The position numbers and the translations under genes were made by a program. A stretch of DNA of 64,000 nt, from assembly GCA_029531755.1 (NCBI GenBank), contig CM055964.1:35970802-36034801 (forward strand), read 5' to 3'. Of the stretch, positions 22,456 through 54,628 are shown one piece after another; the first letter of the stretch is position 1; each line of letters opens with the position of its first letter. Origin of the DNA: Holothuria leucospilota. Its lineage: Eukaryota. Under the pieces are notes generated by a model. That model was not told where the DNA came from. It saw nothing but the letters and a program-made list of their open reading frames with translations, and did no database searches.

Positions 22456-22460
22456 CGTCA

Positions 22461-22492
<32 letters not shown>

Positions 22493-23703: not shown

Positions 23704-24256
23704 TAGACCATATCGGGGATAACATACATTTTATCGAATCACTTGGACTACCCTATGAAATAGCCAAACTTTGGTCCGTGAGTCGCTCACAAACTGACAG
23801 TACCGCATGACACACAAAAGAGAAGAACAACAACTAGCTTAGCAACTAAGCGACATGGGATGAGACTTTCGACCTCCACATGAACAATGTTCTCTGCCTA
23901 CATGCTTCGTAGTAAGGTTGGCAGGACCTGTGCTTTCTAGCAATGTGGGATGGAACTGCTGAAGATCCTGGAGTGACTGTACAGCGCGCGTAGCGCGCCG
24001 AAAAATTTGGGTTCTTTTTAAAGAAATTGTCCTCTTTCAGGCGCCGTCGGGGACTGCATACTCTATCGTATCGATTAAGACTCCCCGATGGGGCTCCCTG
24101 CCCCCACCTGGCGCCATCCCTGTTGAGTGTTCAGTGTCTCTTCAATCTTTTTCTCTTACCCTAACCCTTAAATCCCCCGACTAAGGGATTTTCCCCCGAC
24201 TGACTTCGGAAGTGGGGGGGCCAGTGCCCCCCTGGCCCCCCTTTGAACACGCTACT
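23704..24256 (+). mobile_element. Dispersed repeat family R1, copy A. Contains the GC-rich palindrome cgcgcgtagcgcgccg and ends with the CAGTGGCG-type G-rich terminus. Possibly part of a larger TIR element beginning at 23048 (cagtggcgtgtgcaggatttcgaagg)
   Basis: Shared blocks with copies at 30454-31097, 38575-39075 and 43215-43553: gaaatagccaaac..tccgtgagtcgctcac..gtaccgcatgacacac...gtgggatggaactg...cagcgcgcgtagcgcgccgaaaa(a)tttgggttc. The 3' end gggggggccagtgcccccctggcccccctttgaacacgctactg is the reverse complement of the family TIR. Confidence 0.6.
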
Positions 24257-29744: not shown

Positions 29745-30453
29745 TAAGCGGCCTAGGCCTAATGTTAGGCCTAACAGTAACATTAACTTACTACTTAGTG
29801 TAGCCTGCAAGCTAAAGCACAATTATCAATATTTTCATTTTTCAAAGCACAATTACGTTGAAATAACATGGCAAAGGCCACAAACAATACTGATCTACTC
29901 ACCGACTGCTTAAGTTGAAGTTTAAATCGACTTCCGTATAGCATTCGGCAATGTGTGGGAGTATACTCAGTAACTCAGGTCGTCAAGTGTTATTTCGTGG
30001 ACTCTGGCAGCATAGCAGGTACGATTATGGTGTACACATAATAAACTGCATGCAGCGGTAAAGCTTAGTATTTGAGCTCGTCTGTGGTAGGATCTAATTG
30101 GTGCTGGGCTCGTTTGGTGTTGGTTGGTTGTTTGTTTTCAGTTAAGCTTGTATGGACTTCAGGGCATCTTATGGGGCCTTAGCCCTCCTTTGCCCTTTAA
30201 CCTGTTATGTTATGTTATGTATGTGGAAGCACTGGACATACATAAATTGACATACATAAATATGCATCTCTGTGGACATGTGATTAACTACAGTGGTACA
30301 GGTTGGTATGTGCGCATGCTCATACTTTGCACGTTTTAATACATTTACAGACGTGTTCTTTGAATCTGGATCGTGAAATTGAAAAGCGGGCGAAGCGGGC
30401 GAAATTTTTTGATAGGCTTACACATAAAACATATGACGAAACGAAAAAAAGAA

Positions 30454-31097
30454 CTGTAGGGTTTGTAGACCGTATTGGGTGTAACATACATTGTATCGAA
30501 ACCACCTGGACTGCACGATGAAATAGCCAAACTCTGCTCCGTAAGTCGCTCACCAACTGACTGTACCGCATGACACACACACACAAGAGAACACCAACTA
30601 GGCTTTGCGATATATGGGATAAAAGTTACGACCTTCACATAAACTATGTATTCTGCCCATATGTTACTTGGTAAGGTGGACAGGACTTGTGCTATCCTGC
30701 TATGTGGAATGGAACTATTGAAAAAGAGAGTGACTCTACAGCGCGCGTAGCGCGCCGAAAATTTTGGGTTCTCATTACAGAAATTATCCTCTTGAGAGCA
30801 AAAAACAGGTAAACCGTCGATTAGTTGTCGTCTGGGACTGCGTACTTTGGACTAAGACTCCCCTATGAAACTCATATCAATTTGTTTCAAAACACTTTCC
30901 TGTCTAAACTGAAATGTGATATCTATGTATAATTCATGTACACGCTCATCCCGTACACTTGATTGGTCGTGTGGGCGTGACCAAATGTCCTGTTACCATT
31001 GCACAGACGTTCGCTGTACATACAACGCGCGCTCGGTGTAGAAGTCTATGAACCCTTCCCCCATCTGGCGCCACCGCTATTTTGACTGGGGGAGGAG
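30454..31097 (+). mobile_element. R1 family copy B
   Basis: Begins ctgtagggtttgtagaccg. Contains ctacagcgcgcgtagcgcgccgaaaattttgggttctc. Ends cccccatctggcgccaccgctattttgactggggg. ORF 30320..30586(-) is homologous to ORF 43420..43689(+) only because both lie in this repeat. Confidence 0.6.
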
Positions 31098-33924
31098 GTT
31101 AAAATACTGTACGTTGTGTTCCCTATATAGTTGCGGGGCGACTGTCAAAAACACTCTGCCAGAACAGATGACTGAAGTCGAATGTTTGCTTTTCATTTGC
31201 GACAGCAGACCGGTCATCGGTCCAAAGACGTCAAAAAATTGAACCGACTGACACTGCGTTATTTGACCTGGTGGTGATTTTATATAGTAATTTTAAAATG
31301 AAACAAACACCGATTCGTCTATTGTGACTTCTGGTCAACTCTTAGCTGTGGACTTTACCTAAGACTGGCTTTTTATTCCCATCACTAGGGCAACAGTACT
31401 CTAAAAGAAGAGAGTAATTCCAGACTATAAATATCATAGCGAAACGTATTTACGTACCCTCTTTTGTTCACGAGAGGATGGATACTAGAGGGTGGAGGGA
31501 AGGTTTCGTAGATGTAGCGTTTATGGAGTGTGAACAGATCATTATTTTGTAAGACCAAAAGACTAGCAGTGACCTTTTGGAATCAATATTAAAACCCAAT
31601 AGTAATACGTTGCATAAAGCACTAGCTAGTGAGTATGACGTAATATCTGAGTGCTTTGTGTTACTCTGAATGCCCAAGCACGCCACACGTGGTTCCAAGC
31701 GAAAAGTGATTAGAATGCCTGATTGTCACGCAGACATACTGTAGTCACATTCTCTGTAAAACGATTGCACTGTTCGGGTTTCGGGGCGGCCAATATAGGC
31801 TACCGTAGTCAAATATATTGCCGAAAGTTTCTGCGATACATGGCTAGACTGTTACGAGTGGATAGATCTATACTGGATGGGGGTAACCAAAATCTCCTGG
31901 GAATTGGACAACACTGTCATTACCTGTGAAACTGTCTGGTTTTTTTTTTTTTGCCAGTGTGAAAAAAAAAACATTTTTTGAAAAAGGGCACAATGGAAAA
32001 TTTGAGGGGGGGGGGGGTCCGGACGCCGGCGACCCCCCCGGATCCGCCACTGCTATTCGATTTCGAAACTGTCATCAAATTTTGCCTGTCCACCATCCCT
32101 CTTGCTTTACCTAAAAAGAAGGTGATATATCATATCTCCTCCCATATGGATATCGGGTAGTGAGAATCCCGTTGGTCCCTCTTTTGTATACTGTAATTAA
32201 TTTAGAACTCCTGGGAGGCTCTATACTGTTCTCTGTCAACCTTGGATATCCTTTTAAAATGTAAAGGAAAAATTTTTATTATAGTCCAAGAATGTTTCTG
32301 TGGACTCCACGCAGGCATAATTGCGTGTACAATTTTCCCATGGGCGTGGATCATGCGGGACGGGGGGACGCGTCCCCCTCACTTTTACATCGTCAAAAAG
32401 TCCCCCTCACTTTTTCAAAAATGATGGAACAGACTGCAATTATGCCTAGGAAAACGAAATTTTTAGAAGAAAAATAACCTAAAATCGTACACTTTTGTTG
32501 CACCAAATCGCATCTGAGGGCATTCAGTTCTAGAAAAATTTCCCTTAAACCCCTCCCCCATGCCGAAGATCACAAAACTTATTGCCTCCCCGTGACGCAA
32601 ATTCTGGCTACCACCAACTGCTTCTTCCACGCCACCAGGACGGCGATTCACAAATGTGAAAAAGCCCCCCCCCCCACACACACACACACTTTTGGAGATG
32701 GATCCACGCCCATGATTTTTCCTGGGACTTAAGGAGGTTTGAAGACAATATGTTAACTGTCTCTTACTCCCCTTTTTCACACGAACAAAAGTTAGAATTC
32801 ACTAAATTGTGGACATTTTCTAAACATAAAATCACTTTAGAATGACCCAAAGACACCACCATTTTGCATATAGGCCCCCTAAAATTAACAAAAATTTCTC
32901 AAAGGGGAGGATAAACCCCTTCCTGGGATTGCACTCTCATGTACTAATAAGAAAAGGCTCTCCCACTCTTGTATATAGCATATACAAAATCCCACTGCCT
33001 AAAAAGGCACGGTTTAGCAGTTATCTGCGGTTCCTCCAATCACCAACTCCCGCCGGCACCATCGGTCATAGATTTCTGAAGGGTATACCCTTCAGAAGTC
33101 CATAAAGAAGGTGATATATCATCTCTCCTCCCATATGGATGTAAGGTTGTGAGAGTCCTGTTGGTCCCCCTTCTCAGTGTACAATTAATGCAGAGTCTCT
33201 ATACCGAAAATTTTCGGCGCGCTTCGCGCGCATTTGTTTACGCTTATGGAGAGAGGTACGTTTTTATTGAGTGATGGATTTATTTTAATCACTTTTTACC
33301 AAAAGTCGTTTGAAATCTTTCACGATTTTAGCAAAGTCTTCTCAATATTTCTTGATTTTCACTTGATCTGGGCACTTTTAGCCTTGAATTTCTCCTTTTA
33401 CTATCAATAAGGAGCCAAACGTATTCGCATTACTCATCGGTGGGGTTCTACCATAAGCCAATTATTCGTGTGCATAAACGTGATTTCAGAGGAGCCAGCA
33501 TTGTAAGGATGTGAAGCAATTGATATTCATTTTTTCACCCTCCTCTTCTTATGAGAACTGAAAACTTAGTATCGAACCCACCTTCTAATTGATCACAAAA
33601 GGGAATTGACACCTTTAGTCATAGCAATGGTTTTAAATGTAAATTCAAATTTCGGCGCGCTTCGCGCGCAATTGTTTCATCTGACTTCCTAAACCCGAAT
33701 ACCGTATAACGAAAATAAAACACTCATTATGACAAAAATCATTTCAAGGTACCTGCACGGGCCTATAATGTTGGCGTGTAAGTTTTAAGATAACTTAGAT
33801 TCTCCGGAACTTCTGAAGGTACATACAGTAACTTATACTGAGCCATACACATCAAATTCCATGCAACATGAAAAGGTATAAAATCTCACTGACATAAGAA
33901 CTGGAGCCGATTTCTGTGCTCTTA

Positions 33925-37031: not shown

Positions 37032-37927
37032 CAGGGGCGGATTTAGGGGGGGCCAGGGGGCCCGGGCCCCCCTTCCAAAAATTTTTGAAGTTTTTTCAAC
37101 TTCATCAAACAAATGACTATACCCTATTCCAATTAAATAGGCCTTTGTGATGTGTCAGAGTGAAATTCAAATTTGTTCATTATTTAAATTTCTACCTCAG
37201 AAAATAAGTCTTATGTTAATAATTCTGTTACTGACCTCCGGCTGATAACATTTTGGCTTATATTGGTCACAGTAGCTATTTCCGGGCATTGCAAGGGGTT
37301 ACCCATGAGCGTTGTATTGGATTGCTAACTTCAGTCTATTACCGGCCGGGCCCACAGCATTGGGAACACTGCTTCTACTTTCAAGGAAATTTCAGAATTC
37401 TTTAATATTTAGAGGAATATTTTCAACAACCTCAGGCTTTTAACTATAACTTGCTGCAACATTAGCGTCTTCTTTAAGCTTTGTCATTTACTTAAATGAA
37501 ATGTACTTCGAATTTAGGGTAATATAAGGAAAAACAAGACTTCAATTCGGGAAACTGCCATCCTAATATGTGGACAAAAAGGCTACTCTCCTCTTTCCTC
37601 CAACCAAAATTTAAATTTCACTAAATTATGAGCATTTTCCAGCCATATATGATCAGTTTCAAAAATATACTAAAGACATCAGCATTTTGCATTTGAGCAA
37701 TCTTAAATTAACAAAAATTTTCTTAAAGGGGAGGGGACACCCCTCCCCTTAGACCCCTCCCCCAGGACGGCGATCACTCATCACATACTTTACCCCCTAT
37801 CAAAATACCCTGCCACCACCCCTGGTGCACCGCCTCCCCCTTAGATCCCTCCCCCAGATCGGACTTTTATACAAACCACCATGACCTGGGCCCCCCCCCC
37901 TTCTGCCAAATCCTGGATCCGCCACTG
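37032..37927. mobile_element. ~0.9 kb member of the CAGTGGCG-TIR family. TIRs: CAGGGGCGGATTTAGGGGGGGCC and GGCCCCCCCCCC..CCAAATCCTGGATCCGCCACTG
   Basis: Terminal sequences are mutually inverted and match the family TIR. The internal region 37590-37900 carries the ...tttcttaaaggggaggggacacccctcccc..agacccctcccccaggacggcgatc motif shared with 41705-41936 and 40930-41520. Confidence 0.5.
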
Positions 37928-38574: not shown

Positions 38575-39075
38575 AGTACATCAGTGGCGTAGGAACCGGG
38601 GGGGCAGGGGGGCCATGGCCCCCCAATGTGTTTTGACGGGGGGGGGCCAAATGTCATTTTGGTCCCCCAAAATAGCGACAGTTTACAGTTTCGTTTTACC
38701 CGTTTTTTGCTCTCATGAGAACAGTTTCTCTAATAAGAACCCCAAAATTTTCGGCGCGCTACGCGCGCTATAGAGCGACCCTGGTTTCTCTAATAGTTCC
38801 ATTCTACATAACTAAATAGCGCAAGTCCCTTCCACCTTTCCAAGTAACATGTAGAGAAGTAGTTTATGTAGAGAAAGTAGTTTATGTAGAGGTCGTAAAA
38901 TAAATATCTCAAAGCTTAGTTACTATTCTCTTGTGTGTGTCATGCGGTACATTCAGATGGTGAGGGACTCACGGAGCAATGTTTGGCTACCGGTATTTCA
39001 TCGGGTAGTCGGGATGGTTTCGATACAGTGTATATTATCTCCCATATGGTCTACAACCTGTCAACCCCTATAGAT
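38575..39075 (-). mobile_element. R1 family copy C (inverse orientation). It starts with the TIR cagtggcgtaggaaccgggggggcaggggggccatggcccccc
   Basis: ccccaaaattttcggcgcgctacgcgcgctatagagcga...ttctcttgtgtgtgtcatgcggtac..ggactcacggagcaatgtttggctac...tctacaacc is the reverse complement of copy A/B blocks. Confidence 0.6.
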
Positions 39076-39226
39076 TTTCTTTCTTCTTTTTATTCTTAAT
39101 GATTACATATGTTTTTTGTGAAAACCAACCAAAAATTTCGAGCGCTTTGCAATTTTTCACTTTATATTCCGGGAAAAACATTTAAAGAACGCGGAACTAT
39201 GCTTTCCTAGTTTACACAAATTTTAT

Positions 39227-39241
39227 GCAATATATACTATA

Positions 39242-39302
<61 letters not shown>
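39227..39302. repeat. (TA)n microsatellite, about 30 repeats, inside an R-family element
   Basis: atatactatatactatatatatatatatatatatatatatatatatatatatatatatatatatatatatatatg. Confidence 0.9.
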
Positions 39303-39306
<4 letters not shown>

Positions 39307-40361
39307 CTGAATGACATGGTCTTAGTACACAGGTTTTCAATACCCGACGGTAATGGGCTGTCGGAGCTTCTGGTCGCTGTCCCCCCCCCCCCTTTCGAGC
39401 AAATCCTGGCGCCACCTCTACTCCACTTGATAATAGACTCTGGCTGTGGAAAATCTCTATTCCAATTAATCCACTGAAATTCATGGGAATAACTCCACTC
39501 TGAATATTTTTGAATAAATTCGGGTAGATTGTGACAAACGTAATGCGTTTTAGAATAAATTCAAATCAACCTTCACAAATTTTCTACAAAAATTGCATAT
39601 CTTGATGGCTGCTATTAAGGCCGACAAGTGCCATTTCCGGCGATCTGGGCTGTATTAAAATCTCAAATTTTCTTGGTACGCTCCGCGCCAACCTATGGTG
39701 GCGCTCCGCTTAGATAGTAAACGAGAACCAACGCCAACAAAACTCCCCAGCCCTCCAGAGCCACCAAAAAATATCTTAGCTACACCACTGCTAATGTGTT
39801 GTTGTTGTTGCTGTTGTTTCCTTTTTCTTTAAATATACTACTTTGAGCAAATATTAAGTTGGAGTGTGGAACGGGTCGGGGTTCAAGGTCGAAAAAACGC
39901 ATCTTGTCTGCCCCCCCATATCAAACATCTTCCTACGCCGCTGTACATATGTGTTTAGTGATGAAACGATTATTGTACTACCTACAGATAGGCCTTCTTG
40001 ATGCAATTTAAATGAATTTGGACTTTCAAAACCATCTTTCATGGATTTTTATGCCAATGTCATGTGCATATATCGGATTCTCAGTGTTTAACATATGACA
40101 AAAATAAAACAGCAGATGCTATGTGTCAAGTTCTATGTCTCCCCTACACAAATTGCTTAACGGAATAAAATGTGTCTGAGTTGTCTCTCTTTAGGGAGTT
40201 AAAAAATTTCTTAATCATGAAAGGTAGAATAGTCTTATGCAAGTGACATTTCTGGTAAATTTACTGGCATTGATACTTTGTCCAAAAATCTCTCAGTGGG
40301 CTAGACGCTAATCAATATGGGATCCTTTAATCTAATTTGTAAGCATGATGTGGAAGGTTGA

Positions 40362-42050
40362 AACTTTAAAGCACGTTGTTGCCGTTATATATTTTTCAAA
40401 AACTTTTACCGAGCGCTTAGCGCGTCGAATTATCGGTGTAGCTGGTGATTGCCAATATCCTTACAAAGAAAAAGCTGAAACGCGCTTGTTAGTCCTTCAC
40501 ATCTTTTGCTACACATATCAGGGAGGTTTAACATCACCTTACTGCACCTATTCTCTCCCTCTTGCCGATTCTCCATTGCTGGAAGCTGTTCGTCTGGATT
40601 TTCGTTCAAAATTAGTAAAAATATGATAGATGTAAAGTGCTTGGCGTCATAATCTTACCATTTGGATGTCAGGTAATAAGCGTTACGCCATTGCCTCATT
40701 TTATATAATTGATCTAGAGCTTCCAGGAGGCCCTATACAGGCATTTGCCAGCCTTAGATGCCCTTTTATAGTGCACAATGAAGGAAGGGAAAATTTTCAT
40801 AATAGTCCAAGAAAGTTTCTGACTCAACGCAGGTATTTTTGCGGAAAAACTTTGCCAGAATAGAAGCAGTAAAGTAGCCAAAAGGGGGCTTCAGGAAGAT
40901 TTCTGAAAACGTGTTCTTCTCTTAGACAACATACTCCCTTCTTTCACCTTACCAAAACTTTAAGAGTTCACTAAATTATGGACATTTTCCACCCATATAC
41001 GATCAGCTCCGAAAATGAATCAAAGTTTTACCATTTTGCATCTAATCAACATTAAATTTACAAAAATTTCTCAAAGGGGAGCCCCTTAGACCCTCCCCCA
41101 GGGAGACACCTTCATGTAGTGATAAAGGAAGGATTCCTACTGCTGTGTACAAACGCAGGGTGCATAAAAAGGTGCAATTTTAGCGTCGCCACTGCAGTTA
41201 GTAAAAGCATCCAGCCAGGCGGAAAATTAGAATTCACTAAATTATGGAAATTTTCCAGCCATATACGATCAGCTCCAGAAATATCCCAAAGATAGCACCA
41301 TTTTGCACCTAAGCAACCTTAAGTTAACAAAATTTCTCAAAGGGGAGGCGGACACCCACTCTCCTTAGACCCCTCTCCCAGGACGGCACCGTTAGGTAGT
41401 GACAAAGGAAGGATCACCACAGCTGTATACAAAACGCAGAGCGCATAACAAAGTGCAATTTATACGCCGCCGCTCTGTTGGAAAACATCCAACCAGTCAA
41501 AACTGGGGGCCTTCACACCCAAAAACATATGACCCTAGCTACAGGCGTGTTGGGGTCCATGATCTCTGAAAATGATCCACGCTGCGGAGCGTGGTTTCAG
41601 CTATTCTGGGACATGATTAAAGTAACATCTTGAAGTAGTTCTGTGGACTTCGTGTATTTCAACTGGCAGATCATCTATGATGGTCATGTTAACTTTGGAA
41701 TCGTTGGCGTAGCCAGAGTGGGGGGGGGGGGGACGGGGGCCATGCCCCCAATCGAAATCTGAAAAAAAAAATTGGCTTCAAGTGATGCTAAATGCTAAAT
41801 GTTGCACCAGATTGCATCTGAGGGTACTTAAATATTCAGAAATTTCTCAAAGGGACCCTTCCCATAGACCCCTCCCCAGGCAGGCGATCAGGCCCCGCCG
41901 TTGGCCCCCTCCAAAGAAGAATCCTGGCTCCGCCAGTGTTTGGAACTCTTATTAGAATAGGACAACGTCAGTCATCACAAGAGGGGACACAGGGAAGGGC
42001 ATAATCAAAAACAAAGGGCTTGATAGTTTGTGCTAAGTCATTTGTGTCCC
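40362..42050 (+). other. Block X of a large inverted segmental duplication (partner 49885-51907). It includes a 285-bp tandem duplication (40930-41215 / 41215-41500)
   Basis: 40362-40900 is the reverse complement of 51420-51907. 41215-41703 is the reverse complement of 50976-51420. 41705-42050 is the reverse complement of 49885-50268. About 85-90% identity by eye. Confidence 0.7.
41705..41936 (+). mobile_element. hAT-like MITE copy X (same family, TIR GGCG(T/G)AGCCAG)
   Basis: 5' end cgttggcgtagccagagtgggggggg. 3' end gaatcctggctccgccagtg. Flanks are tttggaat and tttggaac (7/8). The internal region carries the family motif attgcatctgagggta...tttctcaaaggg...agacccctcccc..ggcgatc. Confidence 0.65.
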
Positions 42051-43214
42051 CCCACCCTTTGATACGGATTGACGCCCCTGCCTTAGACCCCTCCTCAGGA
42101 CGACGATCCGAAACAACGTTCATCCCCCAGTCTGGAAAAGCTTCCTACACCTATGATGTATACAGTAATGGTGTATTAACTTTACATAATGAACTGTTTG
42201 TCTTGAGCAGTCTAAAATTAGGAATGGCAAACACCTGCCTCGTATTCTCTGTCTCTCGAGTACTCCTGTTCCCGTGTGCCCTATACCAAGCCACAGGTTT
42301 CATCAGCCCCCTCCTGCTCGCGAGACACACGTACCTCAGGTTCGACGGAGGCAGGCCCGTAGCCAGACAAGGTACTGGAGGGGGGGCCAGAATTTTTCCA
42401 GGGGGCGATTTTTTTTCAGGGGGGCCAAATGTGAACAAATGTATTAAATCATAGTAAGATTCAAACTCTCTGGGGGGGGGGGGGCTGGACGGAGGCTAAA
42501 AATTACTCTGTAAAAGACTTACTAAAACGGGTTATGACTAATTTCATCATGTGTAAGCTAAGCTTCAAGTTTAACGTTAATTCACTAATGAGAGGGGGGA
42601 AAAGTGTAGCTTGGACCACTTAAAAGATTTAAAAAGAAAGAAAATTTAAAAACACCAGTAAATTGCCTGTGATGAGCTAATACTGTCCATAGAATAAGTT
42701 GGCAGGAATATGCACAGGGCGTCCCTAGGGGTGTGTGGGGGTGACACCCCCAGTCATCCACGCAGTCGACAAAATCCTGCACTCAGTCGGCAAAATGAAG
42801 GAAAGAAGGAAGTGCAAACGAAGGAAAATTAGAGGGAAGAAGAAAGAGAAAAAAGCGGAAAAGGGGGAAAGAGAATTAGAGGAAGAGAAAAAGACCGAGG
42901 GGACAGAGAAAAGAACAAGGGAGGGAGGGTCAAAGCAGGGCAAGAGAAAGGGGATGGAGAATACAGGAGATTGGAATACATTTGTAGACAATGTTTATCA
43001 CAATATTTCCAAAGCCCGTAAGCAACACTTTTTGAAACTTAAAAAATATTCTGTCTGCAAAAAAGCTACATAGGGCTTTTCAGCATTATCGTATACTGAA
43101 GGAGTTCATCGTTCATGTGGTATTCTGGCATGAGTCGGTAAATTCTGCATCAGTCGGCAAAATGAAGGAAACATGAGGAAAACAAAGAGAAAAAGAAGTG
43201 GAAGAAAGAGGACA

Positions 43215-43553
43215 ATTTCTGTAATCAGAACCCAAAATTTTCGACGCTCTACGCGCGCTGTAACGTCACTCCCAATTTTTTCAGTAGTTCCATTCCACAC
43301 AGCTATATAGCATAAGTCCTGTCAACCTTACTAAGTAACATGTAGGCAGCTGGGGTACACAGTTTATGTAGAGGTCGTAAATTTCATCCCATATCGCAAA
43401 GCCTGGTTGCTGTTCTCTAGTGTGTGTCATGCGGTACGGTCAGTTGGTGAGCGACACACGGAGCAACGTTTGGCTATTTCATCGGGTAGTCCAGGTGGTT
43501 TCGACACAATGTATGTTGTCCCCGATATACAGTCTACAACCCCTACAGTTTTA
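43215..43553 (-). mobile_element. R1 family copy D (inverse orientation, 3'-truncated)
   Basis: acccaaaattttcgacgctctacgcgcgctgtaacg...gtgtgtgtcatgcggtacggtcagttggtgagcgacacacggagcaacgtttggcta...cagtctacaacccctacag. Confidence 0.55.
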
Positions 43554-46500
43554 TGTTTTTTTTTTTTTTGTTCTTAATGATTACATGTTTTTTGTGTCAG
43601 CCTACCAAAAAAATTCCCGCCCTTTGCAATTTCACGATTCAGACTCGAAAGAACACTATCAGTGCGCAACTCGGCTCTTGACATATTAAATGATTAAATG
43701 ATATAATGCAAATTATACTCTGCAATCAATGGCATGGGATAGATAGGCTCCTTCATATCCCTTTCTCACCCCCTCGACATGCTGTCGGATCTTGGAGTCG
43801 CTGGCATGGCCCCCTGTCGGGAAAATTATGTCGCCAACCATGGTCGGTTTACTTCTTTTAGCTTTCGAAAGGGTCATTTCTGCGATAAAACTAAAAATTT
43901 TCGGTGTTCTTTGCCCACTCTTCCTCAGTTTCGTTACGAATAGCTAAATATAGAACAAACCCTTTCCATCTTTTCAAGTAACTTAATAAGTAGAATTCAT
44001 CTTTTCATGTAAATGCCGGGAATCTCATTTCGCTAAATAAGTTAACTGGTTAATGTTCTCTTTAGTCTGTCTTTCGGTATAAGGCTAGTGACTCGAGGAG
44101 GGAAGTACAATGTAAGTTGTGCCCGATAGGGCCCAACTGCCTGGACAATTGACCTATATAAGCTTTAAATAAGTGCAGATGCTTTTAAGTGGAAGCTTAC
44201 CCCCAAAATTTCGCGCACTTCGCGCGGTTTGCAATTTCACAGCTTAGATTTCGGAAAAAACGTAAAATCGGGCAGAACTATATTTTCCTCCAGTAAATAC
44301 AAAATTTTATGCAATATATGCCCCGCAATGGCATGGTATAGTACACAGGTTTTCTTCAAATCTCCCCCATACCAACCCATCGACGGCATCGGGGCTGTCT
44401 AGGTTTCGACTCGTTGACCCCCCCCCCCCCCGGCCCCCGTCGGGCAAATCCTGGCGCCACCCTTGCTGGACCACTACCAGTTGGACTAACGGTTCTCAGC
44501 TCAGTAACTGCATGGCTTATCCAATACTTTCAGTCGGCATTTGTTTCTTCTCAGTCTGCAAATACGGGCCCCCTCCCATGATAAATGCTCTAGCTACGCT
44601 CCTGAATATGCATACACTTTATAAAAAATTGTTTTTAAAAAATGTGATCTAATGGTCCAAATTACCCATACTATGTGTAATTTGGACCATCTTCATGTGT
44701 AATATGAACCACGTTGAACTTGTACGAGTTCAACATAGACCACTCCTCGTGTAATTTGAACCACACCGTACATACTACACTGCCGAAAGTGTGGTCCAAA
44801 TTACACATAACTAAGTGTCATTGCCGTGTTTTTACATATAGTATATAGTATGAAGCTATGGTTTTCAAATATCATGGTTAGGTTGAATAAGAAAGCTGCC
44901 GAAATAAGTGTTCAAACAACACCCTCTCAAAAAAGTTGTCAAAAATGAAGCAAAACTTAAATGTCCGAAATTAACATCAAAATGCATCATTGGGAATAAT
45001 CGAAAAAATAAGGTTACATGTTATATAAACATTTGGAGCCAAGATTAGGATGTTACCATATTGAGACTTTCATATGTTAAAGAGGAATACCGCCATCTGC
45101 AATGTAACTGCTCGAAATGATGGTGGTCCAAATTACCAACTTGAACTTGCAATGATAACTAACACGTTACTTAAGTACGGTAATTACATCAGGATTCAGA
45201 ACCGGGAATTCTGTTTTCCTATCGCAGGCCACTGTGATAGTCCTAAGTGCAAAGTGCACTGCTATCTTCGTACATAGGGTATCCATTGGGCCGTTGTCCC
45301 ATACGTGGGCACTTTTGGGTCCATGAGAAACAACCCGGTCAGGGACCAGCGAGCAAAACTCTAGGGTATGAACAAGATTCTAGCAGTTATTAAAATAAAA
45401 CATACAATAATCTGATAATGGATGCGTGAAACTAAAAAGACCACAAAACCACATCTTACCACTTGTGTACATAGCATCTTAGCACGGACTAGCGGCAGGT
45501 CGATTGGATGATGTCTGAAGTGATAATGGACAAGCAGCTACGAAATGCGCGCTTAGCGCATCGGCAAAATGCGTTGTTAAAGACACCTTGTTACGTTTTT
45601 CTTCACTTTTCATTAAAAGGTTATTTTTTTTTAAATTTTCAACCCTCCCCATGGGGTTTAGAGCTCCAGAATTCATCGAAACTAACATGAAAGTGCCCAC
45701 CGAATATATTTCTTAGGGAGTTCCATACTTCAGCTAGATGTGATAGCACACTCCTGTTCAATGACATGTAGCATATCTTTTACTCAAAACTAAACATTTA
45801 CCTCTAGCTGTGCCAACTGGTATTGCACCTGGTTTATGGGTAAAGATATACATAGTCTCCGGGTTCTTAAATCACGACCTGTGGGCAACATCCTGCCCGC
45901 CAGGCGATTCAGTCCGGCCCGTGAAGAAATTGAGATCTGAAACAAAAATTGACGGTCATGAAGCAACAGCAATTATCAACATTTTTTTAATATTGTGGTT
46001 AGTGGAGACAGAAGAATAAATTTGGTTATTTTTTTAAATGAAGTAAAATATTGCTTAACTGTATGAAAAATGTTGTTTTTCGGCGCGCTTCGCGCGCACT
46101 TTTCATTGTCAATTATCTCATTATTTCTTAATATGAGAATATGAGGCAGCTTGGTTTCAAAATTTATACCAAAGCTAAATTCACCAGGGACGTGGCTAGG
46201 GTGTGTCTAACCCCATCCACCTTGGTAAACTTGACAACAGGAGAAAATTTTGGTACAAAAGTAAAGAATTTCGAAAGCTGCACTGGAAATTTTCAAGCAC
46301 AGACTGTCACAATGTTCCTTGTTGTGGGTTAAAGTTTTTCCCCATATTTTTTGTCCTAGTTAAGAAATACTTCTCTTAATTTTAGTATCCAGAAACAGAA
46401 CACAGCAAGAAAAGTGTCAGAGAGTTTCTCTGCTACATAGTCAATCTGTTTAGGTACTTTCTCTCTCAGTTCTCAATCAAGATTCTCCTCTCAAATCAAG

Positions 46501-49500
46501 AACTCCCATGTTTACCAAAGACATCCCTTTTCAACCTGTACTGTTGCTACCCAGCCCATCCTTTAGTTTGTTTGTCTAGTTGTCTGCATCATGATTTAAT
46601 TATAGGATCAATACAAAACAATACAGGGGGTCATGTCAGATTGAGTCACCTCTTATTCTAGATCTCCCCCCCCCCCCACTTGAATTCGCTGAAAACAATG
46701 GGTCACTCCGTGAACATTTGACTTCCCTACCAGGTAGTTTCTATGGGCAGAGGGAGAGACTTGACCATTCTCTGACCCCAGCTCTCACCAAAAGTTAGTT
46801 GCTATGGACGCATGAAGCAACTTGTTTCTCTGAGTAAATACGGTAGCCTTTAAAAGCCATCCATTCATTACACTGGTCTCCCTCTAATTCCTGTAACAGA
46901 AAAAGAGGATTTTAGGGTCAGTGAAATGAAAATTCCGACAGGAGAAATCATGAAAAAATAGACCATCAAGCACGATTGCATGTAGTCTTTTATTAGTATT
47001 GTAGGGTCGTTTTTGCCCAACACGAACCTCACTTCATGACATGGGTGACTGGGGCATAGCTGATGTAGGCCCACAATTTCTCTGAAACGGTGACGCCGAA
47101 CTGCTTCTAGTTGTTGACTATGTTTGCATGAGAAGAAATTGATTAATAGGCTAATTGTAAAATCAGAGTGGATGGGATAATGGGAGATAGGTGGGCTCAT
47201 TTCTTTTCAAATTTCTACCCTCTTTTCCACTGATAGGTCCATCTGAAAGAAAAATTAGTCGCAAAACTAGGTTCATGCACTCTCCGATACAGTCCAGGGT
47301 TTAACAAAACTCTCCCCATATGTGAGAAGACCGTTTCGTATATATTGCTAATGAAAATGCTGAAAACATCCGTCACTGCCCCGACTGCCTGATTGTGATC
47401 GTAAGGCCCTAAGAACCATGGCAGGAATACTGCATGTACAAGGGCTCCAAACACACCCGCAGATGCAGCTCCGGTGCTTTTATGTGAGGGCTTCTTTCTC
47501 ACAAGTAACCCCACACCTGTAAACCCCCTCTCTTTTGCCCATGGGACTGAGGAGAAATACGTTAATGAAGAGGTCAGGGGTGGGTGTAGAATTTACAAAA
47601 AAGTTACACTTGTACCGATTACACATCAGTTTTGGAATAAAAATGGAAGAGCAAAAGGTACGGTTTTTGACCATACCTCATCAAACTGAACGAATGGATT
47701 ATCCGTGACGGTATATGCTGCAGACGTTGCAGTTTTCTGGTTTCAGAAACCACCTTATTGGTATTTCACCTCCAATTCCTCATCATCGGCCCTGTACTCC
47801 CTCAATCATCATCAATCCTCCGTATATACCCACTCCTAAGTCCACTGTATAGTCAAATCAATGGGCGGATTCGACCACTGCTCCATGGCAAAACATAGCT
47901 AGGCCAGATCAGTGGAAGTTGGGTAGGGTAAAACCATGGCAAAAAGTTTTCTCTCATTTGTATTTTATTATTTGAAGTGTTGCATTTCTAAATCATGAGA
48001 TCTCAAAATAAAGAATCATATTTTTAGATGAAAATTACAAGGGTCGGTAAATGCTATTTCCGATAATCTCGGATATTTTTAGCAAAATTGTTCTTGGTAT
48101 TCTACGTGCCAACTAATGGTGACGCTCCGGTCAGAAAGTTTCATGTGCTCGCCCCTGCATGCTCTTTTCAAAGCGGATGTTCATTACTGTATCGTGTCAT
48201 ACGTTTATTACCTGCTCTGAATGTCCCAGGGTTTTCGCTATTACAAAATTAATGGTCAAATTATGATACTTGTGATCATCCGTATAGTGTGCTTCAACTG
48301 GAACATATAGAGACTATTATTTGCTTCAATCTGATGTTAAAGTTTGTTAATACCTGCAGGAACTTCTGGAGCTTTGTTCTACGGAGGCGTTGCCATGGAC
48401 CCCCACCCCGGAGCCTTTCAATGGCTTCTAGGCACACTGACACAACGCTCTCGTATGGAAAACTTTGAGTTTCCGTTGGGCAACGACCGTTTAATCATTT
48501 CAAAATGAAATTCCTAGAACAAAGTACGATTATTTGAGTATGTTCCCACTTGAGTACGAACAAGAAATCGGATCACTGAGATCAGGATCTGACCTCTGAC
48601 AGGGGATCAATTTGCTAGTGGGAACGACCGCGTTATCCAGATCAGATCTTGAGAGCTTATTCGCCTCTTCGGGAAGGATCAGACCTCGAAATACTCCATC
48701 AAAAACAAACACAGCACAAATGGGAAGAGAAGGGCCAATCAAGATGACCCTAGATCAAAGATCACGTATAACACAAAGGTAAAAAACATAACCGACAGAA
48801 GTCCATTCAATGATGCATGGCCGTACAGGACGGTTTTTCTCAGGGAGGGCGGTGATTTTTGCCACACTCCAGACCTAATTTACCTGTCCAATTTCCCTCC
48901 CGACTGAAACAAAATAGCTGCCCGATTTTGTCAGATCAGGTTCTGACATTTGGGGGGCGGCCGCCGCCAGCACCCCCGGCCATGTCAATGACGCAATTTC
49001 ATGCAGCTTCACCGGAGGAGGCGATCAGATCCCGGGCAAGAGTTCAAATGGGAACACACTTGCAGTTAGCCAGGACATTAAGGTTCCATCTGACTGGACA
49101 TGAGGATATCGTCATCTTTGGATCAAGTGGGAAGACATTCTTTTTGCTAGTCGCCCTATAACCAAATTTGTTAGGGTTTAGGAGGCTGGCCAAAGGATAA
49201 CGCAGACTAAGTTTATCTGTTCTTCACCTCAACTTGTTGAACGCAGGTGCGTAGAACTTGCAGTTGCTTTGATAAAACGTCAGGGGCGAGGGATCGAAGC
49301 GACCGAACCGAGGACGCTTGCGCGCGAGGGGGGGGGGGGGGTGTGGGAGGGGGTGTTCCCCCTCCTACGGTGAGAAGCTTCTGTGTTTTTTAATGTGAAA
49401 ATATGTGATTTGGTGCATACTTTATATGGTATTTTGTATACAAAAGGACTCAGACATATTATTATGTATTTTATGAAATATTTTGTAGGAATAACCATGT

Positions 49501-50034
49501 AGAAATCAAATACACGCATATTGCTGGCAAATAATTTATCATTCTACAAGTATGCAGAATCACATAACAGCTTCAAAAAGGTGTAAGGTGTTGCTTTTGT
49601 ACATAGGCCTACCACCAGATACCATGTGTTCCTGATATGGTAGGCCTACAATTTGTCCCCTTACGGTATCGATAGAGTTGGCAAGTATGCTGCCAGCCCA
49701 TGGGTTGGCGCGGAACGCGATAAAATTTTGGTCCGAAATGCCTCCCAGATCGCTGGAAATGGCACTTCCCAGGCCTATTTACTGCATAAAAACAGGGGAA
49801 AGACTAGTCATATTGTAAAAAAAAGACATAAAAAATGCCAAAATTTTGCTCAAAGGGGGCGGCTTCCCCCTTCGGACCCCACGGCTACGCGCCTGCACAT
49901 GACTTAGCACAAACTATCGAGCCTTTTTTGAAAAGGGCGTGTCTTTCTATAGGCCCTTCCCTGCTCTTTGTGATGACTGACGTTGTCCTATTGTAATAAG
50001 AGTTAGGATTCCAAACACTGGCATAGCCAGGATT

Positions 50035-50268
50035 CTTGTTTGGAGGGGGCCAACTGCCGGGCCTGATCGCCGGCCTGGGGGAGGGGTCTAAGAGGAGGAA
50101 GTATTCCCCTCCCCTTTGAGAAATTTTTGAATATTTAAGTACCCTCAGATGCAATCTGGTGCAACATTTAACATCATATGAAGCCAATTTTTGTGTTCCA
50201 TTAACAAATTTTTTCAGAGTCCGATTGAGGGGGCATGACCCCCTGCCTCTCCTCTGCCTACGCCAATG
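50035..50268 (-). mobile_element. hAT-like MITE copy Y (paralogue of 41705-41936 within the inverted segmental duplication)
   Basis: cactggcatagccaggattc ... ctacgccaatg. Flanking 8-mers are attccaaa and attccaaa (8/8). Flanks are homologous, as reverse complement, to those of copy X, so this is the same insertion event duplicated. Confidence 0.65.
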
Positions 50269-50281
50269 ATTCCAAAGTTAA

Positions 50282-50971
50282 AGGAGCTGAGTAGTGGCGT
50301 ACTTCCAAAATAAATACATCATACGAAACGAGATGATTACCCTCTGTGCGGGGCTAATTTTAAAAATATTTATCCTAATGCGTTTTATATTCTCATTTAA
50401 AATAATCTTGCAAAGTAATTTTGCTATAACGTTCCTATACTATTTCTTGGGCTATTTGATTTTACACCTGCAAGATATTTTACAATTTGTTTTTTTGAAT
50501 TTCAGGTTCGTGACTTTTTCTCCTGGCACCGGCAATTTTGAATCGTTTCCACTCCTATCGGTTCTGATCGATGCATCTACCCAGGCATGTAGCACACACG
50601 ACTTACAACGTACGTACGCATGTAGTATATTAGCGTTACTAGTGGCAAGGCAGACGCCCATTTCGCGCGTCATCTGCTGGAGGTTCATGAACAACATTGT
50701 GGATTTTGCAGGTATTGAAACTGTTTTTTTTTCGATCAATGAGTTTGTTTTTCGTGGTAGACCTAGGCCCTAACGCTAGCCTAAGTTAGGCTAACGTTAG
50801 TACTGTTAACGACAGTAACAAGTGTACTGTTACACCAAACACACTGCATGCATGGCTTTGATAAGTATCGGTATCAGATCGAATGGATAAACCAAGAAGT
50901 ATAACCGGATGTGACGTAACGAAGTCGGCGGGTCCGAGAATTTATTATACTTTGGCGGCTACTCAGCTCCT
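50282..50971. mobile_element. 690-bp non-autonomous TIR element. TIR: AGGAGCTGAGTAG(T/C)GGCG. Inserted at a TTAA (or TA). The empty site is preserved in the paralogous block at about 41690
   Basis: Filled site: gtgTTAA[aggagctgagtagtggcg...cgccaaagt..ctactcagctcct]TTAActttggaat (50278-50975). Paralogous empty site at 41684-41703: tggtcatgTTAActttggaat. The internal AT-rich ORF 50294..50773 has no recognisable homology. Confidence 0.75.
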
Positions 50972-51903
50972 TTAACACGACCATCATAGATGATCTGCTA
51001 GCTGAACTACACTGCGTCCAGGGAATTACTTCAAGATGTTACTTTAATCATGCCCCAAAATAGCTGAAACCACGCTCCGCAGCTTTTGTTCATTGTCAGA
51101 GATCATGTATCCCAACCACGCCCGTAGCTAGGTTTATATGTTTTGGAGTGCGAAGGCCCCCAATTCGGACTGCTGGATGTTTTTCGAACAGAGTGGAAAA
51201 AGTGTAAATTGCACTTTGTTATGCGCTCTGCGTTTTGTATACAGCTGTGGTGATCCTTCCCTTGTCGCTACATAAAGGTGTCGTCCTGGAGGAGGGGTCT
51301 AAGGGATTTTTTTTTTTTTTTTGAGAAATTTTCGTAAATTTAAGGTTGCATAGATGCAAAATGGTACTATCTTTGGTTTATTTTTGGAGCTGATCGAATA
51401 CGTTTTCAACAACCTTAATGAAGCCCCCTTGGCTACTTTTTTGGCAGTTTTCCGCAAGAATACCTGCGTTAAGTCAACAGAAACGTTCTTGGACTATTAT
51501 GAAAAATTTTTCTTTCCTTCAATGTGCATTATAAAAGGGCATCTAAGGCTGGCAAATGCCTGTATAGGACCTCCTGGAAGCTCTGGATCAATTATATAAA
51601 TGGGGCAATGGCCTAATGCTTAAATTGTAATATAGATTATGACGCTAAGCACTTTACATCTATCGTATTTTTACCAATTTTGAACGAAAATCCAGACGAA
51701 CATCTTCAAGCAATGGAGAATCGGCAGGAGGGAGAGAATAGGCGCCGTAAGGTGATGTTAAACCTCCCTGATAGGTGTAGCAAAAGGTGTGAAGGGCTAA
51801 CAAGCGCGTTTCAGCTTTTACTTCGTAAGTGTATTAGCAATTACCATCTATACCGATAATGGCTTCGCGCGAAGCGCTCGGTAAAAGTTTTTAAAAATGT
51901 ATA

Positions 51904-53479
51904 ACGGCAACAACGTGCTTTTCGATTTCAGGACGGTAGACAAAGAGGACGGAACGCGCAGCAAAAAAACTGGACTGCGCATGAGTAGAAGCGAGCATCG
52001 CTCCGTCCTGTTGATTTTCAGGACGGTCGTCGACCGATTTAACGTTCTGTTAGAAACAGGACGGTACAGGGGTTGCCATGGTAATTTCCCTCGTCCATAA
52101 CGTACGTGTTTCTGTGACGTTAAATTTGAAGTTAGCTGTATGCAAATGTACATCGTTTGTTCATGTAGCATGCAAGCTGCTGAAAAAAATGAACATGACA
52201 AACAAGAACAGTGCATATGTGGAAAGCCATTTTACGAACGATTCCGTGCTAAGCCAAAGAAAGCTATCTTGAGGTAGAATTTTTGTAAAATGCCCAGTAA
52301 CGATGGCGCCTCTATAATCCTGTGTAGGTTCGAAGTTCGTCATTGTTACAACTTAGCGATGAGTGTGGATGCTAACAAAGCACTGCAACTTAGTTAATAA
52401 ATGAGCGCGTCATTGTTTTGTTGTCATTCTACCGCACCGTCGTCTTTAAAACCGAAACGCCTTAAAGTGGGCATGACACGGCCAAAATAACTTTTGTGTA
52501 TTGCAAGATTGGGTATAGTAATGTAAAAGTATCATCTCACACACAATTAAAACCGGCGCAGTTCGGCATAAATAGAATTTGAAGAAAAACGTCCAGAAAT
52601 CCAATTTCGAAAAATGCCGCGACAGGTCACCTGACTTTTATGACGCAATTGGCGGCATCCCGCACTGCGCTATGTAAGGACGCGTATCTAGATGTGAAAA
52701 TAATGAAACGCTTTGCATGGGAAAGTTCATATCTTAGAAACTTCATTAAAAGGATTACATCACAATACCCGCCCAACATACAGAGCGCAAAGCGCGGAAC
52801 ATGTTGGGGGCTTCGAAGCATATCATTGGCCAATATGTTCGCGTGCATATGCGCCCGTGTTTTAGCTTCCCTGCATATAATAAACAGCTTTGTTTTGTGC
52901 AAAAAGAACGCTATCCGGGCACGCTGTACAGAACAGCTATGAACATGTATGGACAGTCCATAACAAGCGCGCCTTTACTCAGTGAGCTGTTCAGTAACGT
53001 TGCTATTGTGAATGGTAAGCAGTCACCGCGCAACGACGCATAGTTCACGATGTGGTCACTGGTCACGCGCGCTGCTGTATAGTATCGTAGCACAGGTGTT
53101 TGCAATGATGTACCTGCTAACACGCGTTAGCATGCACATGATTCGATGTGTAGAACGATGGGTGAGCTGCCTGGTACAGTGTTACTAACCGTGCCTCCAA
53201 TGACGTCACGATCTTGAGACGCGCTCACATACTTTTTTTTCGCTTTTGGATTTCAGATGGCTGAGTCTGGCCTGTAAATGGGTATTCACAAGGTCGTATT
53301 ACTGTGTTTATGGACGTAGTTGAGTCGGAAAAACATTTGCTTCATTTCAAGCTGTACCCAAATAATACTTACGGAGAAACGTACTTTGGCCGTGTCATAC
53401 CCACTTTAAATGTCAGGACAGAACGCCGGGCGCGCGTGCGTTTAACCCTCCGTCCTGTTGCTCTACCGTCCTGAAATCG
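51904..53479. mobile_element. ~1.58 kb TIR element. TIR: CTTTTCGATTTCAGGACGGTAGA..AGGACGGA, with internal caggacgg sub-repeats. It hosts the nested 940-bp element
   Basis: 5' end cttttcgatttcaggacggtagacaaagaggacggaacgcgc (51904-). 3' end ccctccgtcctgttgctctaccgtcctgaaatcgaaaag (-53479) is its reverse complement. Additional caggacgg repeats at 52010-52075. Confidence 0.55.
52466..53405 (-). mobile_element. Copy 2 of the ~940 bp TTAA/TA-flanked TIR element, nested inside the 51904-53479 element
   Basis: ttaa|AGTGGGCATGACACGGCCAA ... TTGGCCGTGTCATACCCACT|ttaa. It is the reverse complement of 13275-14211: the ORF-track peptides MLAGTSLQTPVLRYYTAARVTSDHIVNY... and MTQLAA.RTALCKDAYLDVK... recur. 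Confidence 0.8.
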
Positions 53480-53790
53480 AAAAGTCGCTAATAAACTTGT
53501 GTACAACTATACTACGGTCTTGAGCAAGACTAGTATGAGGACTGAACACTAACCGCACCAAAAACAGCATTTAAAGACATGTACAATATATATTATCTGC
53601 TTCACTTTGCATTGGAGAAGGTATTTAACAGGTTACCCCAAAATGGTACTTAGCGTATTTTTGTCATATTGTAAAAGTTGAGGGGGGGGGGATAAATTTT
53701 TGAATTTTATGGGTCATTCCCTGGTAAAAGTGGAGGGGAAACATCATTTGACTCCCCACCGCCCCTGATTTCCGTCAATGCACTCAAGCT

Positions 53791-54106
53791 CAGTGGCGTA
53801 GCTAGATATTTTTTGTGGGGGGCAAAAGCAAAAAATTTTCCGACAAGAGTATTATCTGGGGACTCCCCCCCCTTTTTTTTTTTTTTTTTTGCTTTCCGGG
53901 CAATTTGAGTCCGACTTTTGATTTCCACGTTCACATCATGTGTAATTCTGCTTACACACATAACAAGTGTTGTAAGTGTTTCAAATGAATTGTTTTTAAT
54001 TTATTTCCGACACTGAGAGACTATATATTTCCGACAGAGGCCTTCGGAGGCTTTGTGGGGGGGGGCGACCGCCCCCTGCCCCCCCCCCCCTCTAGCTGCG
54101 CCACTG
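53791..54106. mobile_element. hAT-like MITE (316 bp). TIR: CAGTGGCG(T/C)AGCTAGA, G-rich subterminal regions, 8-bp TSD
   Basis: 5' end cagtggcgtagctagatattttttgtgggggg. 3' end ccccccctctagctgcgccactg. Flanking 8-mers are ctcaagct and cccaagct (7/8 match). Confidence 0.7.
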
Positions 54107-54537
54107 CCCAAGCTGTATAGTATAGGAACCAGTAACGGAAAGTAACAGTGACACAACTAGTGCAAACAACGGGTGCCCATGGTATTTTTTCTAGACATTT
54201 GGGAATTGTTTCAATTCACTTAACATTGCAAAAGTTACATTAAAGTATCCACTAATTTCGAGTTTTTGTAATAGGCGTCATCGTCATCACCATCGCCATT
54301 ATTAAGAATGGGGTGAGGAGAGGAGGATTATTTCGCCAATTTTTTGTTGGGAGGTGGTCACTTTGTCACCCGCCCAGTGAAGTTACTCTCCTGTCTTCAA
54401 ATTTATCCATCAAACTGGCACAGTGGGTACGAAAAGCTTCCAGGATGTGCCCGATCGGTCTCGTAGGCTATACTGTATTGTATTATTACAATTGTTGTTC
54501 TCTCATCCTCTATTGGGTAACCCTTACGTGCAAATTT

Positions 54538-54628
54538 TTTGGGGGCAGTCAGCATATCATGCTGGGGGCAGTCAGCATATCATGCTGGGGGCAGTCAGCA
54601 TATCATGCTGGGGGCAGCATATCATGTT
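54538..54628. repeat. 24-bp tandem repeat, about 3.5 copies: gggggcagtcagcatatcatgctg
   Basis: tgggggcagtcagcatatcatgctgggggcagtcagcatatcatgctgggggcagtcagcatatcatgctgggggcagcatatcatg. Confidence 0.85.

Follow-up and report, generated by a model that had tools for sequence, protein, structure and literature searches.

Probable old local inverted duplication of transposon-fragment-rich non-coding DNA in an echinoderm genome

Two related segments lie in opposite orientation within a 64-kb stretch of an echinoderm genome (the whole stretch analysed, hereafter the window), which raises the question of whether they descend from one duplicated block, from independent insertions or from the two ends of a single mobile element. 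A repeat search of the window recovered 14 inverted pairs, and self-BLAST gave three colinear pieces, namely 40368-40916 against 51921-51396 (85.4%, 615 bits), 41262-41692 against 51400-50972 (83.5%) and 41689-42044 against 50281-49896 (74.9%, gaps counted). The arms X (1686 bp) and Y (2035 bp) are colinear reverse-complement copies with an ungapped identity of 87.0% over 1274 aligned positions (K2P 0.144; 83-90% per block), far beyond chance and in agreement with the paralogy at roughly 85-90% that had been claimed. The separation of about 8 kb also held, at 7851 bp, and the limits originally given for the arms, 40362-42050 and 49885-51907, are refined here as follows.

40359-42044, + strand: arm X, consisting of block A (40359-40916), an X-only segment (40917-41261), block B (41262-41692) and block C (41689-42044)
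42045-49895, no strand: spacer of 7851 bp, non-coding, with dispersed-repeat copies (e.g. 43204-43656) and small MITEs
49896-51930, - strand: arm Y, consisting of block C (49896-50281), block B (50972-51400) and block A (51397-51930)

A 26-mer common to X and Y has exactly two occurrences in the window where 0 are expected, and the longest perfect run between the arms is 56 bp. Their differences comprise 91 transitions, 75 transversions and 25 small indels; when the arm-specific segments are subtracted (345 bp from X and 690+4 bp from Y), each arm measures 1341 bp. Within the 64-kb window, the arms are a mosaic of three repeat families and three stretches confined to X and Y (40359-40646, 41500-41701 and 41939-42044), each of the latter present in exactly two copies. 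Since colinearity runs through all three repeat families and all three window-unique stretches, a block (segmental) inverted duplication is supported over independent insertions, as judged from the sequence. We therefore consider it probable that about 1.7 kb of non-coding, transposon-fragment-rich DNA was duplicated here in a single old, local event, in inverted orientation.

The block bears no hallmarks of a transposon and has no coding capacity. Terminal inverted repeats of its own were not detected (shuffle p 0.45-0.86 with the 13-nt outer tip described below left out), and neither a target-site duplication (TSD) of the block, nor poly-A, nor Helitron-type ends were found, so that the block was rejected as a transposable element (TE) itself. 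No homology resumes past any of the four arm boundaries, even by word-7 BLAST, and the idea that it picks up again beyond TE insertions at the boundaries was likewise discarded. The reading frame of a 93-aa ORF in X is not retained in Y, and TRF detected no tandem arrays in the arms.

The relative age of the duplication can be read from the insertions that the arms do and do not have in common. Both contain the same MITE, as had been claimed, at an orthologous site.

41694-41946, + strand: MITE in X with flanks; element 41702-41938 (237 bp), TIR CGTTGGCGTAGCCAG / CACTGGCGGAGCCAG, 8-bp flanks TTTGGAAT and TTTGGAAC
50008-50276, - strand: MITE in Y with flanks; element 50016-50268 (253 bp), TSD TTTGGAAT (ATTCCAAA on the + strand)

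The TIR is CAYTGGCGTAGCCAG, and the TSD TTTGGAAT is perfect in Y and matches at 7/8 positions in X. Because the insertion site and the TSD are identical in the two arms, save for this one mismatch in X, the MITE is older than the duplication, as the initial annotation had held. Its short TIRs, 8-bp TSD and multiple copies indicate a TIR MITE that is probably hAT- or P-like; relatives lie in the window at 53791-54106 (TSD 7/8) and 42352-42489 (TSD GACGGAGG, 8/8).

The TE content of the arms has nevertheless diverged since the duplication, as was first proposed, and the 690-bp insertion reported in Y proved to be exact.

50278-50975, - strand: Y-specific TIR element with flanks; element 50282-50971 (690 bp), 13-nt perfect TIR AGGAGCTGAGTAG, TTAA duplicated

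The TTAA copies lie at 50278-50281 and 50972-50975, and a single, empty TTAA is present in X at 41689-41692. This element entered Y after the duplication. Its sequence features would place it among TTAA-specific, piggyBac-like TIR elements, but the canonical piggyBac CCC...GGG termini are absent.

The second arm-specific difference, a 345-bp segment, was traced to dispersed repeats.

40917-41261, + strand: 345-bp segment in X, missing from Y
40932-41499, + strand: two neighbouring repeat units in X (~40932-41222 and 41223-41499), 76.5% alike, of a dispersed family of ~280 bp
51165-51423: the single Y copy of the ~280-bp repeat family
32763-33033, 37582-37771, 26438-26557 and 25473-25561: other copies of the family, from the window repeat comparison
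40647-40857, + strand: repeat part of block A, with a third copy at 32130-32340 (69% identical)

Here, a 285-bp tandem duplication specific to X had been claimed. Two adjoining units do exist, but they are not an X-specific gain: both belong to a dispersed family, and at about 76% they are more diverged from each other than X is from Y (82-90%), which makes the pair older than the X/Y split. In Y, block A is joined straight to about position 70 of a repeat unit. This direct join and the dispersed-family membership argue that the unit pair predates the duplication and that Y lost 345 bp; the difference is most likely a deletion in Y, which began in the 5' part of unit 1 and reached to about position 70 in unit 2.

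The same repeats lend some credit to a different origin, in which X and Y are members of a multi-copy composite repeat family that spread together with its nested MITE and lie 8 kb apart in inverted orientation by chance. About half or more of each arm derives from repeat families, and two of the arm pieces, a block-A piece (32130-32340) and a unit (32765-32975), recur in the same order and orientation in a third, diverged region at 32.1-33.0 kb; in addition, X unit 2 resembles the 37.6-kb copy (83.8%) no less than it does the unit in Y (82%). Against this, the third region is alike over just ~420 bp, at 69-71% identity and with a different spacing, the block lacks TIR, TSD, poly-A and Helitron-type ends, and the three window-unique stretches occur exactly twice in 64 kb. 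Two metagenome scans and a protein-space search returned no further copies, in collections with essentially no echinoderm genomic DNA, so that their outcome carries no weight. A dispersed composite repeat is thus conceivable on account of the repeat content and the third region, and we regard it as unlikely.

We then considered the edges of Y, where the following TE termini were found.

51918-53484, + strand: 1.58-kb TIR element adjoining Y (1567 bp), with 36-nt TIRs at 51918-51953 and 53449-53484
52462-53409: TTAA-flanked element of 948 bp nested inside the 1.58-kb element
40359-40371, + strand: 13-nt stretch TGAAACTTTAAAG at the outer end of X, matching the 13 nt at the tip of the TIR (TGAAATCGAAAAG) at 9/13 positions (p ~0.002)
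49799-49895, + strand: MITE-type element end, its terminus CAGGCGCGTAGCCGT on the - strand lying exactly at the inner boundary of Y

The TIRs of the 1.58-kb element are 92% complementary with identical outer 23 nt, repeated GGACGG motifs occupy subterminal positions, and no TSD was found at k = 2-10. The outer boundary of Y had been placed exactly at this TIR, at 51904. It does lie at the TIR tip, but the tip is at 51918 and the boundary falls within 0-13 nt of it: X/Y homology is unambiguous up to 51918 and arguably continues 13 nt into the TIR, to 51930, at 9/13. The corresponding 13 nt in X may stem from duplication of the TIR tip or from micro-homeology at the junction. At the inner boundary, the element that ends at 49895, which belongs to a family different from that of the 1.58-kb element, yielded neither a partner TIR nor a TSD. 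Each edge of Y abuts an outward-facing transposon terminus, from a different element on either side (the MITE end at 49895 and the 1.58-kb tip at 51918), and X may be a copy of just the inter-transposon segment plus 13 nt. In-silico excision of X or Y, carried out to rebuild a split repeat and so obtain polarity, gave no HSP or HMM match that convincingly spans the joint. The divergence has by now obscured both the polarity of the event and any microhomology at the junctions.

The location of both Y edges at outward-facing TE termini, together with the missing TSD, is not predicted by random breakage and hints, at the level of sequence, at the involvement of a transposase or of TE ends. The earlier suggestion of TE-associated breakage or repair is accordingly plausible, given a 1.58-kb element without a TSD and a MITE-type terminus at the inner edge, yet undemonstrated, since neither a split TSD nor a footprint nor another complete TE end turned up. 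One form of this suggestion is alternative transposition by a transposase (sister-chromatid or reversed-ends, cf. maize Ac/fAc), with the 1.58-kb element at the junction. The process is documented to yield inverted duplications with TE-terminus bounds (bioRxiv 10.1101/2020.01.07.897926), and the maize p1-ww-id1 and p1-ww-id4 alleles described there resemble the present locus in having a boundary at the terminus of a TIR element that lacks a normal TSD, which here holds to within 0-13 nt of the terminus. An outer boundary 0-13 nt from the tip, the lack of a TSD at k 2-10, as if one flank of the element had been replaced exactly at the terminus, and the TIR-tip-like 13-nt trace in X, which recalls a fractured end, would all suit such an origin. 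However, in the maize alleles a perfect 8-bp TSD flanks the composite insertion, the symmetry centre bears an excision footprint and two TE ends (Ac + fAc) are present, and none of these features is detectable here: no 8-bp TSD is split over the junctions and no flanks match at k = 2-10, the 7.85-kb spacer has no footprint-like centre, and the window contains no second full or partial end of the 1.58-kb element besides the 13-nt trace at 40359-40371. The maize duplications also span 0.3-3.2 Mb and include TE sequence, whereas at most 13 nt of TE were duplicated here; if these were truly copied, the breakpoint would lie within the TIR and not at the transposase cleavage site, and the TE at the inner edge comes from another family. 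We consequently hold alternative transposition to be a doubtful explanation.

A related scheme, to which we give only a slim chance, would have the TE termini at the edges of Y cause breaks or stall replication forks, so that the inter-TE segment is released or copied and re-integrated nearby. Read-through transcription of the pair might, in addition, produce dsRNA against the embedded MITE families. Mu killer and Ac killer are hairpin loci of comparable build, inverted duplications with TE-derived sequence that could in principle give dsRNA if transcribed through. In contrast to the present locus, known from sequence alone and having a 7.85-kb loop and 87% identical arms, their loops are short and their arms almost identical, and their transcription and siRNAs have been demonstrated.

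The geometry of the locus, with an inverted repeat at each end of an 11.6-kb unit, also invites a reading of 40359-51930 as a single foldback or long-TIR DNA transposon, of which X and Y would be the 1.7-kb terminal inverted repeats. Foldback elements without coding capacity are known, sea urchins included (TU elements). The 7 nt outside the two ends are similar in direct orientation (GGAAGGT / GGACGGT, 6/7, p ~0.0009 at a fixed position), but this match was rejected as a TSD, since the right-hand GGACGGT is integral to the 1.58-kb element, in an intact TIR that equals the other TIR over its outer 23 nt, and is thus not a duplicated target. The foldback transposons FB of Drosophila, Tetris of D. 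virilis (PMC4079207) and TU of sea urchin share with the present locus long inverted arms round a non-coding middle and, in the case of TU, occurrence in an echinoderm; their arms consist of short tandem subrepeats and the element as a whole is TSD-flanked, whereas X and Y are mosaics of unique DNA and unrelated repeats, with an older nested MITE and no valid TSD. The spacer, moreover, contains no transposase, RT or recombinase remnant. A six-frame search of it returned 0 Pfam families at E<=1, and no ORF exceeds 160 aa, on which grounds X and Y were rejected as the bounds of a large autonomous or DIRS-like transposon, and there is no inverted homology inside the spacer or between spacer and arms. 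We find the foldback reading highly improbable. A candidate TIR pair at 42352/49895 bounding the spacer was also rejected, because a MITE of 138 bp starts at 42352 and has a perfect TSD of its own.

No Rfam family matched at gathering score, the sole match at E<=1 being mir-8908 on a spacer palindrome, at 22 bits against a gathering score of 74. The neighbouring gene encodes a PH-domain (sesquipedalian-like) protein; a spliced transcript assigns its exons to the - strand, at 29903-29998 and 6859-8764, and the arms lie at least 10 kb upstream of its first known exon.

Finally, a false inverted duplication or haplotig mis-join in the assembly is very unlikely. Artefactual duplicates are near-identical, whereas X and Y are set apart by 13% substitutions, 25 small indels, one indel of 345 bp and a 690-bp TE that has a clean TSD in one arm and an empty site in the other; the window has no Ns or gaps, and the junction sequences are clean. 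Exact look-ups of ORFs crossing the outer junctions, made for support from an independent assembly, matched no record.

An old local inverted duplication, our preferred reading, may be envisaged in four steps. Repeat copies, including the two adjoining units, would first have built up, the 8-bp-TSD MITE would have inserted, and the 1.58-kb TIR element, whole or as little as its tip, would have arrived beside the arm. An inverted copy of the block would next have been placed about 8-10 kb away, one of its junctions falling on the TIR tip or no more than 13 nt from it; DNA-break repair or replication template-switching appears the likeliest route. The copies would then have drifted neutrally to 87% identity with no conserved reading frame, and Y would at last have gained the 690-bp TTAA element and lost 345 bp.

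Inverted-repeat instability in duplex DNA drops steeply with spacer length and divergence. The initial annotation had proposed that the architecture can drive hairpin formation and rearrangement of the intervening DNA; the arms being 87% identical, sharing no perfect run longer than 56 bp and lying 7.85 kb apart, the case for this is weak and the potential today is low. Inverted repeats separated and diverged like these interact efficiently only in long single-stranded regions (PMC10164571).

The closest counterparts are the small inverted segmental duplications, or low-copy inverted repeats, known from eukaryotic non-coding DNA rich in TEs, which likewise consist of opposite colinear copies a few kb apart, combine unique and TE-derived DNA, have ancestral insertions in common and show neutral divergence with copy-specific TE gains and deletions. 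Nothing essential sets the present locus apart from them, and its special feature is that both Y edges lie at TE termini. We take it to be a real but ordinary duplication relic, with no sign of function and of little significance alone. It does illustrate cleanly how the history of a small duplication can be put in order from nested TE events, with the MITE before it and the TTAA element and 345-bp deletion after it, and it cautions that seeming tandem duplications within such blocks can be older neighbouring copies of dispersed repeats. If the association of duplication edges with TE termini seen at Y were recurrent genome-wide, TE ends would be hotspots for small inverted duplications in echinoderm genomes.

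The inverted repeat formed by arm X (40359-42044) and its reverse-complement copy, arm Y (49896-51930), was confirmed as real by a repeat search and a self-comparison of the window, and gapped alignment resolved it into three colinear blocks.

Colinear blocks of arms X and Y (Y read on the reverse complement)
X 40359-40916, Y 51930-51397: block A, 89.0% identity
X 41262-41692, Y 51400-50972: block B, 84.2% identity
X 41689-42044, Y 50281-49896: block C, 89% identity in the MITE part and 83% in the tail

Overall, X and Y are 87.0% identical over 1274 aligned positions (K2P 0.144), and differ by 91 transitions, 75 transversions and 25 small indels; the coordinates and the 85-90% identity given in the initial annotation were accurate. 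The arms measure 1686 bp (X) and 2035 bp (Y) with a spacer of 7851 bp between them (42045-49895), and each arm comes to 1341 bp once two large arm-specific segments are removed. A simple assembly duplicate is excluded by the 13% substitutions, the many indels, the clean arm-specific TE events and the absence of gaps within the window.

The anatomy of the arms was analyzed within the window with nhmmer profiles built from the X and Y blocks and with permissive BLAST, and both arms proved to be mosaics of repeat-family and window-unique sequence. X 40647-40857 has a third copy at 32130-32340 (69% identical), and the ~280-bp unit, present as two adjacent copies in X (~40932-41222 and ~41223-41499) and one in Y, belongs to a dispersed family that recurs at 32763-33033, 37582-37771, 26438-26557, 25473-25561 and elsewhere, which has a core in common with the interior of the MITE carried by both arms. 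Within the window, 40359-40646, 41500-41701 and 41939-42044 are present only in X and Y. External look-ups for arm copies were empty, in collections that hold almost no echinoderm genomic DNA. A dispersed composite repeat is an unlikely explanation of the arms. Another dispersed family, of ~450 bp, has four copies of 75-80% identity (23701-24038, 30353-30816, 38692-39155 and 43204-43656), one just left of X and another in the spacer, in direct orientation and 4.49 kb apart.

The nested insertions order the events at the locus. The shared MITE (X 41702-41938, Y 50016-50268; TIR CAYTGGCGTAGCCAG) occupies one and the same site in the two arms, and the 8-bp repeat TTTGGAAT that flanks it in both is perfect in Y and matches at 7/8 positions in X. 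The MITE therefore predates the duplication, as had been proposed from the initial reading. A TSD of 8 bp is compatible with either hAT or P, superfamilies that only a transposase would tell apart. Two more small MITEs of this terminal type, at 42344-42497 and 53783-54114 (termini CAGGCCCGTAGCCAG and CAGTGGCGTAGCTAG), have 8-bp TSDs that are perfect (GACGGAGG) and 7/8 (CTCAAGCT/CCCAAGCT), respectively, and the family is locally abundant. The 690-bp element of Y (50282-50971), whose 13-nt TIR is perfect and whose TTAA target is duplicated, entered after the duplication; its empty TTAA site is retained in X at 41689-41692. The two adjacent X units are 76.5% alike, less than the Y unit and X unit 2 (82%) and also less than X and Y overall, and in Y the end of block A passes directly into ~position 70 of the unit. 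The simplest history is that this old pair of neighbouring family copies was already there when the duplication occurred, and that Y subsequently lost 345 bp. Of the tandem duplication previously ascribed to X, the two adjacent units indeed exist, but an X-specific gain is less likely in view of their lower likeness.

At the outer edge of Y, the X/Y homology extends to the TIR tip (51918) of the adjoining 1.58-kb element (51918-53484), which has 36-nt TIRs, identical in their outer 23 nt, and repeated subterminal GGACGG motifs. No TSD of this element was found at any length from 2 to 10, and therefore one of its flanks is not original. The outermost 13 nt of X match the TIR tip at 9/13 positions (p ~0.002 at a fixed position); either 13 nt of the TE were copied along, or homeology was used at the junction. 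The inner boundary of Y, at 49895/49896, is exactly a MITE-type terminus (CAGGCGCGTAGCCGT, - strand) followed by the family G-run and core, and no partner TIR or TSD was found for this MITE-type element. Outward-facing TE ends of two different families bracket Y and not X, an arrangement that random breakage does not predict. The earlier suggestion of TE-associated breakage thus gains general support, but of the hallmarks of alternative transposition, in which transposase misuse of TE ends makes an inverted duplication, neither a split 8-bp TSD, nor a footprint at the centre of symmetry, nor a second TE end beyond the 13-nt trace in X (bioRxiv 10.1101/2020.01.07.897926) was found at the locus, and we regard a transposase-mediated origin as unlikely. 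The 7 nt immediately outside the arms (GGAAGGT at 40352-40358, GGACGGT at 51931-51937) form a direct, TSD-like 6/7 match (p ~0.0009 at a fixed position), yet the right-hand copy is integral to an intact TIR, and the match is therefore best treated as an unexplained coincidence. Readings as a large autonomous element, a DIRS-like element or a foldback transposon are unsupported, because the two block ends share no TIR after exclusion of the 13-nt tip (shuffle p 0.45-0.86), no TSD or poly-A of the block was found, the spacer has no ORF >160 aa, no Pfam domain (six frames, E<=1) and no internal inverted symmetry, homology resumes past none of the four block boundaries, and in-silico excision of X or Y rebuilt no repeat across the joint.

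Nested within the 1.58-kb element is a TTAA-flanked 948-bp TIR element (52462-53409; TIR AGTGGGCATGACACGGCC) with an oppositely oriented, 95% identical sibling at 13271-14215. These copies are far younger than the duplication that made X and Y, implying that a TTAA-specific family has been active fairly recently.

Nothing suggests a function for the duplication: the 93-aa ORF of X falls in a different frame in Y, the transition/transversion ratio is ~1.2, and no RNA family match was found. In duplex DNA, spacers of at least 100 bp and divergence cut inverted-repeat fragility by orders of magnitude. The potential for hairpin formation and rearrangement raised in the initial annotation is low here, although not zero, given the longest perfect run of 56 bp (permissive BLAST), the divergence and the long spacer. 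Where repeats are divergent and widely spaced (identity as low as 75%, distances of up to 30 kb), efficient interaction is confined to long stretches of single-stranded DNA (PMC10164571). Other repeats of the window include a 103-nt near-perfect palindrome (3113-3215), an (AT)36 microsatellite (39230-39303), a perfect 23-bp x 3.4 tandem repeat (54540-54617) and a 39-nt palindrome (44652-44690) whose sub-threshold mir-8908 match (22 bits vs a gathering score of 74, E = 0.65) is probably due to chance.

The window is eukaryotic, repeat-dense and of ~41% GC, and no tRNA genes or Rfam families were found across it. Among named proteins, a 432-aa PH-domain (sesquipedalian-like) ORF (7234-8589, - strand) is closest to those of echinoderms (Patiria, Lytechinus, Asterias and crinoids; 34-63% identity), and its only 100% match is a Logan contig (L001). 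This contig is a spliced transcript on the - strand, joining 29903-29998 to 6859-8764 at 99.3-100% identity, and an intron of ~21 kb separates these two exons of the gene. This large intron contains related satellite-like arrays of 145-bp period (292-bp higher-order) at 9554-10340, 12098-13000 and 20912-22492, together with an array of 56-bp period at 20913-21482. The exon positions therefore place the inverted duplication (40.4-51.9 kb) in non-coding DNA upstream of the PH-domain gene, no closer than 10 kb to its first known exon. The feature was well described at the outset, but slightly over-interpreted: X and Y are a real, old and non-coding inverted duplication, probably of local origin, within echinoderm DNA that is rich in TEs, and an ordinary case of a known type of feature.
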